IMG/VR virus record: IMGVR_UViG_2681813261_000015
Source of the DNA: a virus
Lineage: Duplodnaviria; Heunggongvirae; Uroviricota; Caudoviricetes
Reading direction: 5' to 3' (one strand)
Length of the DNA stretch: 5,567 nucleotides
Positions 1,724 to 5,567 of the stretch are shown here, one piece after another. Position numbers and translations under genes: made by a program. Position 1 is the first letter of the stretch; every line of letters starts with the position of its first letter. The notes under the pieces are model-generated. The model did not search any database and was not told the origin of the DNA. It saw only the letters and a list, made by a program, of their open reading frames with translations.

Positions 1724-1841
1724 GACTGAAATCGCGTCAGTACAGTAAACGCGCTGGTGGCGGTGAATACCTGTCTTTCAGCTTGCTGGCTTTTTCGACA
1801 AGAGTTATTGGTGTGTCACGTTAACCGGAAAAGGAAAAGAC

Positions 1842-2039
1842 ATGCTAAAACAGCAGGATATGACAGAAACCGCCAGAGTGGTGTTTAATGAATTAAGCGT
1901 TACCGAACCGGCGACAGTCGGGGAGATAGCGCAGAATACTTACCTTTCACGCGAACGCTGCCAGTTAATACTGACCCAGCTGGTTATGGCGGGTCTGGCA
2001 GACTATCAGTTCGGTTGTTACAGACGCCTTCCGCAGTGA
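1842..2039 (+). CDS. small hypothetical protein, possible winged-helix/HTH DNA-binding protein
   Basis: 65-aa ORF with ATG at 1842 and SD AAGGA (1832-1836) 5 nt upstream. The segment ...PATVGEIAQNTYLSRERCQLILTQLVMAGLA.. resembles a helix-turn-helix. The stop codon sits inside a terminator stem. Confidence 0.5.
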   Translation: MLKQQDMTETARVVFNELSVTEPATVGEIAQNTYLSRERCQLILTQLVMAGLADYQFGCYRRLPQ

Positions 2040-2053
2040 AGGCTTTTTTATTT
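2026..2053 (+). terminator. Rho-independent terminator
   Basis: Stem GCCTTC (2026-2031) / GAAGGC (2038-2043) with 6-nt loop, followed by TTTTTTATTT (2044-2053). Overlaps the stop codon of ORF 1842..2039. Confidence 0.6.
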
Positions 2054-2066
2054 GTGGTAAATGGGC

Positions 2067-2097
2067 GGCTGGTGGGTGTTAGGGGCACCCACCAGCC
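2067..2097. repeat. perfect 12-bp inverted repeat (stable hairpin or protein-binding palindrome) in the leader of the methyltransferase gene
   Basis: GGCTGGTGGGTG (2067-2078), 7-nt loop TTAGGGG, CACCCACCAGCC (2086-2097). All 12 pairs are Watson-Crick. No U-tract follows. Confidence 0.5.
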
Positions 2098-2189
2098 ATC
2101 TGCTCATGCGTTGGGTTCACAAGCAAACCTCAGGCCCACTGCTTTGCGCAAAAGCAGAATGAGCCTATCAGAGACAGGCTTAATGATCC

Positions 2190-3248
2190 ATGCTTAATAC
2201 TGTAAAAATATCCAGTTGTGAGTTAATCAACGCCGACTGCCTGGAATTTATCCGGTCGTTACCCGAAAATTCTGTTGACCTGATAGTCACGGACCCGCCG
2301 TACTTTAAAGTGAAGCCTGAGGGCTGGGATAACCAGTGGAAGGGCGACGATGATTACCTGAAGTGGCTGGACCAGTGTCTGGCGCAGTTCTGGCGGGTGC
2401 TGAAACCTGCCGGAAGTCTTTACCTGTTCTGTGGTCATCGCCTGGCATCTGATATCGAAATCATGATGCGTGAACGCTTCAGTGTGCTGAACCATATTAT
2501 CTGGGCGAAGCCGTCCGGACGCTGGAACGGATGCAACAAGGAAAGCCTGCGGGCGTATTTCCCCGCCACAGAGCGCATTCTGTTCGCGGAACATTATCAG
2601 GGGCCGTATCGTCCGAAAGATGCCGGGTATGCGGCGAAGGGCAGTGCACTGAAACAGCATGTGATGGCCCCGCTGATTTCTTACTTTCGTGATGCGCGAG
2701 CTGCCCTGGGGATAACGGCAAAACAGATTGCAGATGCCACAGGAAAGAAAAACATGGTGTCGCACTGGTTCAGTGCCGGTCAGTGGCAGTTGCCGAATGA
2801 AAGCGATTATCTGAAATTACAGGCGCTGTTTGCCCGGGTGGCAGAAGAGAAGCATCGGCGTGGTGAACTGGAAAAGCTCCACCACCAGCTGGTGGATACG
2901 TATACCTCACTGAACCGGCAGTATGCGGAGCTGCTGAGTGAATATAAACATCTGCGGCGGTATTTTGGCGTGACGGTGCAGGTGCCGTATACCGATGTGT
3001 GGACGCATAAACCGGTGCAGTTCTATCCCGGGAAACATCCGTGCGAAAAACCGGCAGAAATGCTGCAGCAGATAATCAGCGCTAGCAGTCGTCCGGGTGA
3101 CCTGATTGCAGATTTTTTCATGGGGTTGGGTTCGACAGTGAAAGCGGCACTGGCGCTCGGGCGTCGTGCAATTGGCGTTGAGCTGGAGACTGAACGTTTT
3201 GAGCAGACGGTTCGGGAAGTACAGGATTTAGTCAGCCAGAACGGATGA
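2190..3248 (+). CDS. DNA methyltransferase, beta-class (N6-adenine/N4-cytosine family; DPPY motif suggests N6-adenine)
   Basis: 352-aa product with catalytic motif IV (VTDPPYF) near the N-terminus and AdoMet motif I (DFFMGLGST) near the C-terminus, i.e. the circularly permuted beta-class order. A ~150-aa central insert contains an HTH-like segment (ITAKQIADATGK) and is probably the target-recognition domain. No restriction endonuclease gene is adjacent. Confidence 0.88.
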   Translation: MLNTVKISSCELINADCLEFIRSLPENSVDLIVTDPPYFKVKPEGWDNQWKGDDDYLKWLDQCLAQFWRVLKPAGSLYLFCGHRLASDIEIMMRERFSVLNHIIWAKPSGRWNGCNKESLRAYFPATERILFAEHYQGPYRPKDAGYAAKGSALKQHVMAPLISYFRDARAALGITAKQIADATGKKNMVSHWFSAGQWQLPNESDYLKLQALFARVAEEKHRRGELEKLHHQLVDTYTSLNRQYAELLSEYKHLRRYFGVTVQVPYTDVWTHKPVQFYPGKHPCEKPAEMLQQIISASSRPGDLIADFFMGLGSTVKAALALGRRAIGVELETERFEQTVREVQDLVSQNG

Positions 3249-3288
3249 TATTGAAGAATTAATTACGCGTCGTTATTATGCGGCTCCC

Positions 3289-3364
3289 GGCCCTTTAGCT
3301 CAGTGGTGAGAGCGAGCGACTCATAATCGCCAGGTCGCTGGTTCAAATCCAGCAAGGGCCACCA
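3289..3364 (+). tRNA. ileZ: tRNA-Ile2 (anticodon CAU, ileX/ileZ-like; formally Met by anticodon)
   Basis: Hand-folded cloverleaf: acceptor GGCCCTT/AAGGGCC, D-stem GCTC/GAGC, anticodon loop CTCATAA, T-arm GCTGG-TTCAAAT-CCAGC, encoded CCA. Near-identical in layout to E. coli tRNA-Ile2 as recalled. Symbol assigned from the Q-tRNA gene order known from Stx phages. Confidence 0.85.
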
Positions 3365-3371
3365 TCACATA

Positions 3372-3448
3372 CCGCCATTAGCTCATCAGGAAAGAGCGCC
3401 AGCCTTCGAAGCTGGCTGCGCGGGGTTCAAGTCCCCGATGGCGGTCCA
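3372..3448 (+). tRNA. argN: tRNA-Arg (anticodon UCG)
   Basis: Hand-folded cloverleaf: acceptor CCGCCAT/ATGGCGG, D-stem GCTC/GAGC, anticodon stem CCAGC/GCTGG with loop CTTCGAA, T-arm CGGGG-TTCAAGT-CCCCG, encoded CCA. Symbol assigned by gene order only. Confidence 0.8.
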
Positions 3449-3461
3449 TTATCTGCATCAT

Positions 3462-3538
3462 GCGTTGTTAGCTCAGCCGGACAGAGCAATTGCCTTCTAA
3501 GCAATCGGTCACTGGTTCGAATCCAGTACAGCGCGCCA
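3462..3538 (+). tRNA. argO: tRNA-Arg (anticodon UCU, decodes rare AGA)
   Basis: Hand-folded cloverleaf: acceptor GCGTTGT/ACAGCGC (one G-U pair), D-stem GCTC/GAGC, anticodon stem ATTGC/GCAAT with loop CTTCTAA, T-arm ACTGG-TTCGAAT-CCAGT, encoded CCA. Symbol assigned by gene order only. Confidence 0.8.
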
Positions 3539-3648
3539 TATTCATTCTTCCAGATTCCTTCCGGCAGAGCCTTATACTGAAATATACCTGGCTCAGGATA
3601 TTGTTGAAAATATTTTATGTTTGTCAAAAATAAAAGTTCTGTTAAGTA

Positions 3649-4002
3649 TTGATTGAGTGTTTGTTATACGGTCTAATGGTTTTTTCAGCATTAAATATTT
3701 ATCATTCATATGGTGTGGGTAGAGTGAATATTGATGAGGCGTCGGGGTGTTTCATCCTTAGGCAGCGTATTGATATAGTCAATGCAGCACGAGCAAAGGC
3801 CTTCAGCCGTTTGACAGTTTTGTTCTGTACTCCTGATCGTCTTTCGGGAAGAGACGTTATTATTCTGAATAGTGATGCTATACAGAGGGTTTGCGATGAG
3901 TTCATGGTTGCTAATTCAGAATTATTTGCTCTTGTTCAGGAGTACAACAGAATAGCCAGGACCTGTGGTATGGATGAACTTCGGATTACTCATCTGGGGT
4001 AG
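3649..4002 (+). CDS. orphan hypothetical protein in AT-rich cargo DNA (start uncertain)
   Basis: 117-aa ORF whose first codon is TTG at 3649; first in-frame ATG is at 3676. No convincing SD at either. The region is visibly AT-rich compared with the flanking phage genes. No domain recognised. Confidence 0.35.
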   Translation: MIECLLYGLMVFSALNIYHSYGVGRVNIDEASGCFILRQRIDIVNAARAKAFSRLTVLFCTPDRLSGRDVIILNSDAIQRVCDEFMVANSELFALVQEYNRIARTCGMDELRITHLG

Positions 4003-4322
4003 ATACATATCTGGATTATCACCTGTTACGGTAAAAAGTGATTGCTTACTGTTTTTGTGAATGGCATTGCAGCAGCCGGATAATGTCAGTGCTGGCTGAC
4101 GGTGTGCTGGTGGCGGGTGTGGTGGTTGTTGCTTTCCCGTTGCTGAAAAAGAAAACGCCAGACTGTTAGCCGGGTATCAGTTAGCGGGAGAAATTTTTAA
4201 ATACTTCACAATTCAGGCGGTTGACTGTTGTCTGGTTTGCGGGGAGTTTGTTAAAAGAAACTGGCATGGTGAATCCCCCTGTGCGGAGGGGCAATCAGCG
4301 AGTAGGTATATGGGATAATCGC

Positions 4323-4420
4323 GGATTCAGGTGCTGGTACTGAATTCACCGGGAGGCACCCGGCATCATGCAATGGCACATAGCGCCACTCTCCAGCCCT
4401 CTCCGGAGGGGCTTTTCTGT
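4323..4420 (+). ncRNA. candidate small structured RNA, unit A of a tandem paralogous array
   Basis: Hairpin 1 at 4323-4347 (8-bp stem with one G-U, 9-nt loop); hairpin 2 at 4349-4363 (CCGGG/CCCGG); terminator stem-loop CCCTC-TCCG-GAGGG at 4397-4410 followed by CTTTTCTGT. An extended -10-like element TGgGATAAT (4311-4319) would place the transcript start near 4326. No ORF of 60 aa or more overlaps. Confidence 0.35.
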
Positions 4421-4547
4421 GCCGGATACATCACAGTTTCTGGAACCTTAGGTACTACAGTATCAGTCAGGGTGCTATATTTTCAGATGTGATGAAAGCC
4501 TGTCAGCAGGCAGGGCGTATCGGAAATGACCCAGTAGAGAAAACGTT

Positions 4548-4635
4548 GACTCAGATACCGGTGCTGAGTTACCGGGAAACCGGCATCACATGACCGCTAT
4601 CCTTCCAGGCCCATCCGCTCCGGTGGGCCTTTTTA
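4548..4635 (+). ncRNA. candidate small structured RNA, unit B (paralogue of unit A)
   Basis: Hairpin 1' at 4548-4570 (7-bp stem, 9-nt loop); hairpin 2' CCGG-GAAA-CCGG at 4572-4583 (GNRA tetraloop); strong terminator GGCCCA...TGGGCC at 4608-4629 followed by TTTTTACTG. The arms align with unit A and show one compensatory base-pair change (T-A in A, C-G in B). No clear promoter upstream. Confidence 0.35.
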
Positions 4636-4676
4636 CTGCAGAAAACAGGTTCCCCGTTAAATGCTATGTTGCTCAC

Positions 4677-4757
4677 AATTCAGNNNNNNNNNNNNNNNNN
4701 NNNNNNNNNNNNNNNNNNNNCCCTCTCCGGAGGGGCTGTTTATATTGATTTTGTCAG
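4677..4757 (+). ncRNA. candidate unit C of the same array, core masked by N-run
   Basis: Starts with AATTCAG (4677-4683), the same left arm as hairpin 1 of unit A. It is preceded by an extended -10-like TGcTATGTT (4662-4670). After the Ns comes CCCTCTCCGGAGGGGC (4721-4736), identical to the unit A terminator hairpin, followed by a T-rich tail. Confidence 0.25.
4684..4720. other. run of 37 ambiguous bases (N); masked or unresolved sequence
   Basis: Literal n characters in the input. Falls inside the repeat array, consistent with an assembly gap or collapse caused by the repeats. Confidence 0.95.
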
Positions 4758-4769
4758 ATGTGAGTAAAC

Positions 4770-4803
4770 TCCTTATGGACTTTGTTGTTTTAGTCCATAA
4801 GGA
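4770..4803. repeat. perfect 12-bp inverted repeat with 10-nt loop at the 3' end of the minus-strand ORF
   Basis: TCCTTATGGACT (4770-4781), loop TTGTTGTTTT, AGTCCATAAGGA (4792-4803). All 12 pairs are Watson-Crick. Overlaps the stop codon (TAA, complement of 4773-4775) of ORF 4773..5108. Confidence 0.5.
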
Positions 4804-5108
4804 CATATTTGCAGAGTGCAACGGTTATTAAAGCATTCATTCAATACGTTATCTGTATTTGTAGGGCATTCCTGGCTATTTTTGATTGAATTCCAGAATG
4901 TTTTATTGAATGGTACTACGTTGTAAATGGTTACAGGTAGCACTTTGTTATTGAGCATGATGCCTGTGTGAGTCAGTGTAAATATACTTTCAGGAGGTAA
5001 GAAAGCATCCGATTGATACCAGATTATTAATTTTATTTTACTCCATATGACTGAAAAAGATATTCCGCATGATGGCTGGATAACTGTATCAATCACAATC
5101 CACTTCAT
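4773..5108 (-). CDS. orphan hypothetical protein in AT-rich cargo DNA
   Basis: 111-aa ORF with ATG start (complement of 5106-5108) and a good SD, AAGGAA, 5 nt upstream on the minus strand (complement of 5114-5119). AT-rich codon usage. Convergent with the upstream cargo. No domain recognised. Confidence 0.4.
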
Positions 5109-5353
5109 TTAGTTTCCTTGTTTATGCCTTGCTGGTGATGTTCTGAAAAGTATAAATGATATTTTTGAATGTAAACCATAGAGCAGAATTATTTTTCTGA
5201 TGTTGTTTATTGTTTATTTAAATGCAGGGTGGTTTATATCTCGTCTTGTAGTTTATCCATGCATATCTGCTTGATAATCAGGTTTTTATTTAAGGTATGG
5301 TTTTGTGTTTTTTCTGTATTACATGTCAGGTATTTTAAAGAATTATTTTTCAG

Positions 5354-5542
5354 ATGGTGGAAAGAACCATGGCATTTAAACACTATGATGTTGTCAGGGC
5401 GGCGCCGCCGTCAGATCTTGCGGAAAAGCTGACACATAAACTGAAAGAGGGCTGGCAGCCGTTTGGTAGTCCGGTGGCCATAACCCCTTATACCCTGAGG
5501 TGTACTGGCAATAGCGGACACTACCATTTGTTCTTTTTTTAA
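5354..5542 (+). CDS. small conserved lambdoid late-region protein that typically precedes the lysis cassette (DUF1737-like, from memory)
   Basis: ORF with ATG at 5354; a more likely start is the in-frame ATG at 5369, with GGTGG 8 nt upstream. The motif ...KHYDVVRAAPPSDLAEKLTHKLKEGWQPFGSPVA... matches a small protein I recall immediately upstream of holin genes in E. coli lambdoid prophages. The C-terminus looks atypical. Confidence 0.65.
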   Translation: MVERTMAFKHYDVVRAAPPSDLAEKLTHKLKEGWQPFGSPVAITPYTLRCTGNSGHYHLFFF

Positions 5543-5567
5543 GCAGCCATCTGATGATATTTTTCCC

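Follow-up and report, generated by a model that had tools for sequence, protein, structure and literature searches.

The segment that follows the transfer RNA (tRNA) genes in the late region of a lambda-like prophage was analysed in a stretch of 5,567 nucleotides of viral DNA (Caudoviricetes; IMG/VR record IMGVR_UViG_2681813261_000015), the whole of which is called here the window. This segment, at 3540-5353, is very probably (rough probability, 0.85) a late-operon accessory site organized as a three-part mosaic, in which a resident array of small RNA (sRNA) genes of the STnc100 family is flanked by two cassettes, one carrying an open reading frame (ORF) named here ORF1 together with a DUF3927 gene, and the other carrying iraL. 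The locus is essentially the iraL locus of Escherichia coli CFT073 with extra STnc100-type units; it is widespread and represents an already known kind of element.

Organization of the accessory slot

The window corresponds to the late-regulatory part of a lambda-like prophage. An earlier note, made from the sequence alone, had read the gene order as antiterminator Q, pR', methyltransferase, tRNA triplet and cargo, and this order, with tR' after pR', was borne out by family matches and by ARAGORN. The tRNA triplet (3289-3538; Rfam tRNA, 58-72 bits), which is also annotated in CFT073 and in phage 933W, forms the left edge of the slot. The landmarks of a moron slot up to nanS-p lie in the window, with Q, pR'/tR' and the tRNAs upstream and the N-terminus of nanS-p downstream. 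The holin gene is located beyond the window end; it stands directly downstream in CFT073 and 042, and the layout matches that of 933W. The note was also right in placing here, after Q and the tRNAs, the accessory slot used for stx by the Shiga toxin (Stx) phages, since the gene order of 933W agrees, and in finding no stx homologue: searches of Pfam, NCBIfam and PHROG gave no toxin-family match to stxA or stxB for any ORF in 3540-5353. The features of the slot are the following.

~3551-4193, plus strand: left cassette, ORF1 and DUF3927; missing from most related prophages, where the tRNAs lead directly to the sRNA array
3724-4002, plus strand: ORF1 core, 92 amino acids, GTG start at 3724 (MNIDE...); phrog_2873
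4038-4169, plus strand: DUF3927 (TciB-like) peptide, 43 amino acids; PF13064, 95.6 bits against a cut-off of 25; phrog_1470
4235-4424, plus strand: sRNA unit 1, STnc100; Rfam RF02076, 122.5 bits
~4264-4418, plus strand: predicted RNA of unit 1; extended -10 TGtTAAAAG at 4249-4257, intrinsic terminator at 4395-4413
4463-4636, plus strand: sRNA unit 2, a diverged paralogue; STnc100, 30.1 bits
~4487-4636, plus strand: predicted RNA of unit 2; extended -10 TGcTATATT at 4473-4481, terminator at 4607-4630 followed by TTTTT
4672-4737, plus strand: sRNA unit 3, incomplete; 5' flank TCACAATTCAG, 37 N at 4684-4720, terminator CCCTCTCCGGAGGGGC at 4721-4736
~4737-5359, minus strand: right cassette, composed of iraL and its own promoter; 32% GC; takes the place of the spacer before nanS-p
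4773-5108, minus strand: iraL, RssB anti-adaptor, 111 amino acids; NCBIfam NF007393 and identity to CFT073
5141-5175, minus strand: putative iraL promoter; -35 TTTACA at 5175-5170, -10 TATACT at 5154-5149, start at ~5141

The DUF3927 gene had been overlooked earlier. As for the composition, which the note had taken as the mark of one separately acquired island, the AT-rich flanks with sharp joints are indeed present: the GC content is 38.5% in the left arm (3539-4037) and 32.2% in the right arm (4746-5353), compared to 50.5% in the backbone. However, the centre (4170-4745) has 51% GC, and thus the slot is not one compositionally uniform island.

Resident and added parts of the slot

Comparison with about 90 related loci revealed that the slot content is variable among related phages, as the note had suggested checking, with at least seven different fillings. 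Over all fetched loci, the edges of the BLAST alignments cluster at ~3550, where 60 alignments end, at ~4190, where 53 begin, and at ~5360, where 61 resume; these counts come from a sample biased towards loci with unit 2, the joints being sharp nonetheless. The exact unit-2 allele of the window is found in 67 IMG/VR contigs, 56 of which match neither ORF1 nor DUF3927. Most loci with this allele carry Q, the small ORF, the methyltransferase, the tRNAs, units 1 and 2 and a nanS-p of 617 amino acids, without ORF1, DUF3927 and iraL; in L020, the sole such locus scanned with Rfam, a third unit precedes nanS-p. On the simplest reading of these alignments, the sRNA array would be resident in this phage type, and the two cassettes, of ~640 bp each, would have been added around it.

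Among 5426 complete E. coli genomes, the Q allele of the window occurs in 2479, the ORF1 segment (3640-4037) in 1186 (~22%), the iraL segment in 1446 and the whole island (at least 80% of it) in 859, the identity being 97-99% in these and in CFT073. From the three latter counts, the cassettes occur together and apart. The exact combination of the methyltransferase module, both cassettes and the unit-2 allele was not found among these genomes, nor did any of them have the exact array, 4380-4800 being matched at best with 89% coverage and 89% identity. On the other hand, the IMG/VR locus L022 carries ORF1, DUF3927, units 1, 2 and 3 and iraL, in this order, on a single contig, which makes the order seen in the window credible.

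The closest known counterpart is the potB prophage of CFT073, with the same succession of Q, tRNA Ile/Arg/Arg, an unannotated ORF1, DUF3927, STnc100, iraL on the minus strand and a DUF1737 remnant, and with 97.5% nucleotide identity over 3249-4416. Compared to CFT073, the window has ~300 extra readable bases (4417-4720, the 37-N run included), which hold unit 2 and part of unit 3; it carries a methyltransferase module (1724-3248) where CFT073 has an IS200, and its edges are formed by insertion sequence (IS) ends. In 933W, the order is Q, pR', tRNA ileZ/argN/argO, stx2AB, STnc100 (207.7 bits, 75 nt after stx2B), AsxR on the minus strand, the nanS-p esterase and holin. Thus, 933W carries stx2AB as cargo where the window has ORF1 and DUF3927, a single sRNA unit against two or three, the sRNA AsxR in place of iraL as minus-strand element, and an intact esterase. 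AsxR, an anti-sRNA (933W; L087 3985-4037, minus strand), directly follows STnc100, in the position and orientation that iraL has in the window.

Other loci show further arrangements. The phages phi296 and PPwrbA, which lack stx, carry the tRNAs, STnc100, NanS and holin, and prophage PP2 of E2348/69 carries Q, a hypothetical gene, DUF3927, PasD2, the esterase and holin; PasA of the same strain sits between esterase and holin (PMC8550237). In mEp460, ORF1, DUF3927 and STnc100 are followed by a TolA-like gene and other genes, without iraL, and this phage record carries the left cassette and unit 1 at 96.5-99% identity. Conversely, strain 4/2-1 and phage 813R8 have one tRNA, DUF3927, three units and iraL, without ORF1. 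Locus L006 is composed of the methyltransferase, tRNAs, a TolA-like gene, STnc100, an AraC-type regulator, an IS, an ORF1 homologue, another STnc100 and DUF1737.

The right cassette carries iraL

The earlier note had described two convergent orphan ORFs, 3649..4002 on the plus strand and 4773..5108 on the minus strand, and had considered both as uncharacterised. Their existence, coordinates and convergence hold, in contrast to their orphan status and to the start of the plus-strand ORF: 3649-4002 belongs to phrog_2873 and 4773-5108 is iraL. Indeed, the window IraL is identical to CFT073 WP_000871291.1 (potB prophage, same context) at 110 of 111 residues, and the nucleotide identity to CFT073 reaches 99.2% over 4721-5498, a segment spanning iraL and its upstream region. 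The protein scores 162 bits with NCBIfam NF007393, the IraM model, whose cut-off is 121, and matches PDB 8twd_A (IraM) at E 6e-31, with residues 1-78 aligned. It also qualifies as the IraL subtype, the criterion of PMC4045071 being 95% identity or more to CFT073 iraL along the complete coding sequence. IraM of E. coli K-12 (PDB 8twd) is a homologous anti-adaptor, ~59% identical to IraL (PMC4045071).

In CFT073, IraL binds RssB and raises both the level and the stability of RpoS in logarithmic phase (PMC4045071, Hryckowian et al. 2014); the gene has its own promoter, with a start mapped by rapid amplification of 5' cDNA ends (PMC4045071), and is transcribed according to RNA sequencing (PMC12890032). 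Later work found that iraL mRNA increases upon a shift to 37 C and that the IraL level is raised in a fur mutant. Both the function and the transcription start are carried over here from these published experiments on the nearly identical protein, and would be expected to hold for the window copy. The promoter elements are accordingly putative, and transcription would start at ~5141, 33 nt before the ATG, since the cloning coordinates in PMC4045071 imply that distance. At the other end of the gene, a perfect 12-bp inverted repeat, TCCTTATGGACT / AGTCCATAAGGA, with a 10-nt loop (4770-4803) covers the last iraL codons and the stop; it might form a hairpin that stabilises the iraL mRNA at its 3' end or acts as its terminator.

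The left cassette carries a conserved small gene and a DUF3927 peptide

The ORF1 product matches phrog_2873 at E 3.8e-70. Its homologues, of ~30-60% identity, all start at the position of GTG 3724, the upstream part being not conserved, and the product is therefore likely of 92 amino acids; the longer frames, from TTG 3649 or ATG 3676, are not conserved. The ratio of nonsynonymous to synonymous substitutions (dN/dS) is 0.27 and 0.21 with two diverged homologues, compared to 0.8-1.2, with stops, in the other frames. This substitution pattern indicates that ORF1 is a real conserved gene under purifying selection. The family is narrow: a HMMER search of 1.8 billion cluster representatives gave 20 relatives, all short and unnamed. 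In another prophage, one distant member (P0028) follows a Q-like gene and a tRNA at a distance of ~1 kb.

No match to ORF1 was found in Pfam, NCBIfam or PADLOC, and no hit of a profile search of the PDB had an E under 0.2. The structure predicted by AlphaFold is a two-helix hairpin (helices 3-35 and 50-81; predicted local distance difference test score, 84), for which Foldseek retrieved from PDB and BFVD generic helical hairpins only, with E > 0.1. In 11 of 12 sampled RefSeq genomes, no annotated feature corresponds to ORF1, and in the twelfth, a partial match, it stands under "hypothetical protein"; the annotation pipeline seems to overlook this gene in most cases. In L006, at ~4990-5010, an IS end adjoins the GTG start of the ORF1 homologue, and the N-terminus of the called protein (P0017) is IS-derived.

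The second gene of the cassette encodes a hydrophobic stretch followed by KKK, its membrane topology being judged by eye from the sequence, and the annotations of CFT073 and 042 name it a "DUF3927 family protein". Nothing of relevance on DUF3927/TciB came out of a literature search.

The central array consists of STnc100-type units

The hairpins and CCCTCTCCGGAGGGGC repeats that the note had seen as a terminator and repeat array between the ORFs are confirmed, with four occurrences of the CCCTCTCCGGAGGGGC-type motif and 13 terminator-like sites against 4.0 +/- 1.9 expected from shuffles. Their actual identity is different: they are parts of sRNA genes of the STnc100/PasD family. With respect to the Rfam gathering score of STnc100 (RF02076), 47 bits, unit 1 belongs to the family, unit 2 falls short and unit 3 is unreadable in its N run. 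At the place of unit 3, strain 4/2-1 and the IMG/VR locus L022 have a full STnc100 copy of ~180 nt, with the same flanks and 132 bits.

The RNA starts of the units were placed by alignment to the published start of PasD2 in E2348/69. From these putative starts, units 1 and 2 fold alike, into a long closing helix, 3-4 hairpins, a single-stranded linker and the terminator, the fold of unit 2 having a z of -2.6 relative to shuffled sequence. In an alignment of 10 units from 7 sources (the window and six fetched loci, a small sample of related sequences), 17 of 34 consensus pairs are kept through two-sided changes in one sequence or more, as is characteristic of a conserved structure.

STnc100 is a prophage sRNA related to PasD (bioRxiv 10.64898/2026.05.13.724894), which is abundant, Hfq-dependent, confirmed by Northern blot and has many partners in RIL-seq, a ligation and sequencing assay of RNA interactions (PMC8550237). 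STnc100 RNA, encoded 75 nt downstream of stx2, was detected by reverse transcription PCR (RT-PCR) in vesicles of Shiga toxin-producing E. coli (STEC) (PMC12370729). PasD2 and the window units share a 5' core, GCATGGTGAATCC, with a ACCGGGAGGC hairpin, and PasD2 is likewise preceded by Q and a DUF3927 gene and followed by the esterase. On the other hand, PasD2 has an unrelated 3' part, in which its proposed seed is located. Unit 2 was considered as a PasD and rejected: in the comparison with PasD1 and PasD2 of E2348/69, only the 5' core aligns, and the 3' half, where PasD has the seed region CCUUGUGAG, differs. In the RF02076 scan, PasD2 was not picked up at the gathering score. The genomic arrangement differs too, the units of the window forming tandem arrays of 2-3 copies, in contrast to the distant copies of the Pas survey, where pasA copies are explicitly non-tandem and pasD copies are >1.5 Mbp apart on average (bioRxiv 10.64898/2026.05.13.724894).

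In several related loci, the PGAP annotation has a partial "hypothetical protein" pseudogene on the minus strand opposite STnc100 (L001 4715-4840, L002 5327-5452, L010 23270-23395). In CFT073, 042 and 4/2-1, this pseudogene over STnc100 most likely represents an artefact of annotation.

Alternative interpretations

Several observations weigh against a mosaic of functional parts. The STnc100 score of unit 2 is under the Rfam gathering score, the fold of unit 1 is no better than that of shuffled sequence (z = -0.5), and the start sites and promoters of the sRNAs are placed by homology and consensus only. The N run hides the third unit and its exact junction to the iraL cassette, and ORF1 and DUF3927 have no assigned function. 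In addition, IS ends at 1-47 and 5499-5567 and the truncated nanS-p indicate that the prophage is probably defective here, and Q-driven late transcription may no longer reach the lysis genes.

The idea that the stx position holds one island of orphan genes, uncharacterised and acquired separately, accounts for the position itself, the absence of stx, the AT-rich flanks and the lack of known function of ORF1 and DUF3927. It is nevertheless highly unlikely, given that iraL is characterised (PMC4045071) and that the array is a known sRNA family, resident and of 51% GC. Moreover, the flanks occur independently, the left cassette without iraL in mEp460 and iraL without ORF1 in 4/2-1 and 813R8, and each separate segment, with 1186 and 1446 genomes, is more frequent than the whole island (859). 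The note had also named the contrary outcome, a conserved backbone segment with annotated functions, and part of this is what we find: the central array is conserved in the backbone of this phage lineage, and one ORF has an annotated and tested function. Even less probable is that the ORFs and hairpins are mere leftovers in the debris of a defective prophage. IS ends do bound the window, nanS-p is truncated here and a pseudogene in relatives, and RefSeq annotates nothing over ORF1 in those 11 of 12 genomes; however, iraL is intact, its conservation together with the promoter reaches 99% in 1429 genomes, and in CFT073 it is both transcribed and functional. Moreover, purifying selection acts on ORF1, compensatory changes preserve the structure of the sRNA units, and the left cassette and unit 1 are carried, nearly unchanged, by the mEp460 phage record.

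The 37-N run over a repeated unit raises the question whether it is a scaffold gap at which halves of two prophages were joined during assembly. Near-identical copies of unit 1 are present in several prophages per genome, the query of the genome search having up to 12 matching places in each, IMG/VR contigs with odd tandem late regions exist (L039, L076), and no locus in the searched collections, complete E. coli genomes included, is identical to the window; nor are the two loci with 99% IraL identity, in E. albertii NBRC 107761 and E. coli ECMA0423, that a scan of species representatives retrieved. Such an artefact is still unlikely, since the single contig of L022 holds the same series of genes and units, 4/2-1 and 813R8 have one unit, a middle unit, another unit and iraL contiguous, and the N run is bordered precisely by the beginning and the terminator of one unit. 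A last question is whether the units act mainly as terminator or recombination linkers for cargo exchange in lambda-like phages, rather than as regulators themselves. A unit follows the cargo in different phages, namely stx2AB in 933W, the TolA-like gene and the ORF1 homologue in L006, and DUF3927 before PasD2 in E2348/69, and similarity to other phages begins or ends at or within a unit, in the window at 4190-4206, 4372 and 4415. On the other side, the compensatory changes argue for selection on RNA structure and not on DNA identity alone, PasD, a related sRNA, is bound by Hfq, abundant and linked to many RIL-seq partners (PMC8550237), and STnc100 RNA was found by RT-PCR in STEC vesicles (PMC12370729). 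A mainly linking role thus seems doubtful, with perhaps one chance in five of being right, and regulator and linker roles are mutually compatible.

Proposed functioning of the slot

If the mosaic of a resident array and two cassettes is correct, iraL would be transcribed in the lysogen from its own sigma-70 promoter, in the direction opposite to the late operon. By analogy with the CFT073 protein, IraL would bind RssB, the adaptor of ClpXP, and spare RpoS, so that the general stress response would be raised during growth; carriage of iraL would then be a case of lysogenic conversion. In the same state, the sRNA units would probably be expressed from their own extended -10 promoters to their own terminators and could act as Hfq-type base-pairing regulators of ~150 nt, as suggested by their motifs, their conserved structure and the related PasD.

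For the induced state, we follow the established lambda/933W model. Polymerase loaded with Q at pR' would ignore tR' and the sRNA terminators and head for the lysis genes. The methyltransferase, the tRNAs, ORF1 and DUF3927 would be transcribed at a high level, as is the case for stx2, and the transcript would run antisense through iraL. Since the left cassette holds the position of stx2AB in 933W, it is probably expressed most strongly after induction. In the present copy, the late operon is broken by the IS3-family end at 5499 and the element may be defective.

Significance

The result is mainly a clean annotation, and the current understanding of such slots is unchanged. It places IraL, sRNAs of the STnc100/PasD type and Stx in one modular exchange site: iraL, which resets the general stress response in uropathogenic E. 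coli and Shigella, occupies the slot of the Shiga toxin phages of enterohaemorrhagic E. coli. It also flags a small conserved gene, ORF1, left uncalled by RefSeq in nearly all sampled genomes (11/12). More speculatively, ORF1 might be a new Q-controlled phage effector and the STnc100-type units might be joints at which cargo, stx included, is swapped; we consider this rather improbable. If the units were such cassette-swap joints, the sRNA array would be a recombination scaffold for the toxin slot.

Edges of the window and neighbouring genes

The other features of the window are listed below.

1-47: IS3-family end; identity of 100% to the bases adjoining IS transposase genes in L006
168-425: 3' part of a DUF968/YdfU-like gene
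425-799: RusA
796-1617: antiterminator Q; PF03589, 183.7 bits
1623-1650: pR'-like promoter; TTGATT at 1623-1628, extended -10 TGgTAAATT at 1642-1650
1698-1717: tR'-like terminator, from the terminator scan
1842-2039: small ORF; phrog_331
2190-3248: N6/N4 DNA methyltransferase
3289-3364, plus strand: tRNA with CAT anticodon (ARAGORN); annotated as tRNA-Ile in related RefSeq loci
3372-3448, plus strand: tRNA-Arg TCG (ARAGORN)
3462-3538, plus strand: tRNA-Arg TCT (ARAGORN)
5354-5498, plus strand: N-terminal remnant of the nanS-p sialate esterase (DUF1737); PF08410, 57 bits
5499-5567: IS3-family end; matches the end of the IS with orfA/orfB in L022

The small pre-lysis gene that had been noted at the right edge is correctly positioned but consists of a truncated nanS-p N-terminus running into an IS3-family end. 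The annotations of CFT073 and 042 list the remnant as an incomplete pseudogene. Similarity to these two strains ends at 5498, and the final 69 bases are derived from an IS, which in L022 is inserted within unit 2. Since phage similarity stops at this point and the IS match follows, the ORF at 5354-5542 represents the first 48 codons of nanS-p with a read-on into the IS. At the opposite edge, the IS end at 1-47, which we take to be IS2-like, truncates the DUF968/YdfU-like gene, whose C-terminal remainder is the ORF at 168-425.

Between Q and the small ORF, the zone 1618-1724 contains a promoter-like element with a strong terminator ~50 nt further on, and resembles the short pR'-tR' transcript of lambda-like phages. 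A weak Rfam match to Trp_leader in this zone is likely spurious; the Rfam matches to Plastid-ycf2, Trp_leader, P26 and Yar_3 either score below threshold or lie on the wrong strand over a tRNA, and were taken as chance.

The small ORF and the methyltransferase form a module (1724-3248) that is an insertion relative to CFT073, 042 and mEp460, where 1723 joins 3249; in CFT073, the IS200 lies at this 1723/3249 joint. From these alignments, a second variable site is located between tR' and the tRNAs. Finally, in the IMG/VR loci L039 and L076, the tRNA set of the late region and the STnc100 units occur two or three times within ~9 kb, which could result from tandem recombination between prophage late regions or from chimeric assembly.

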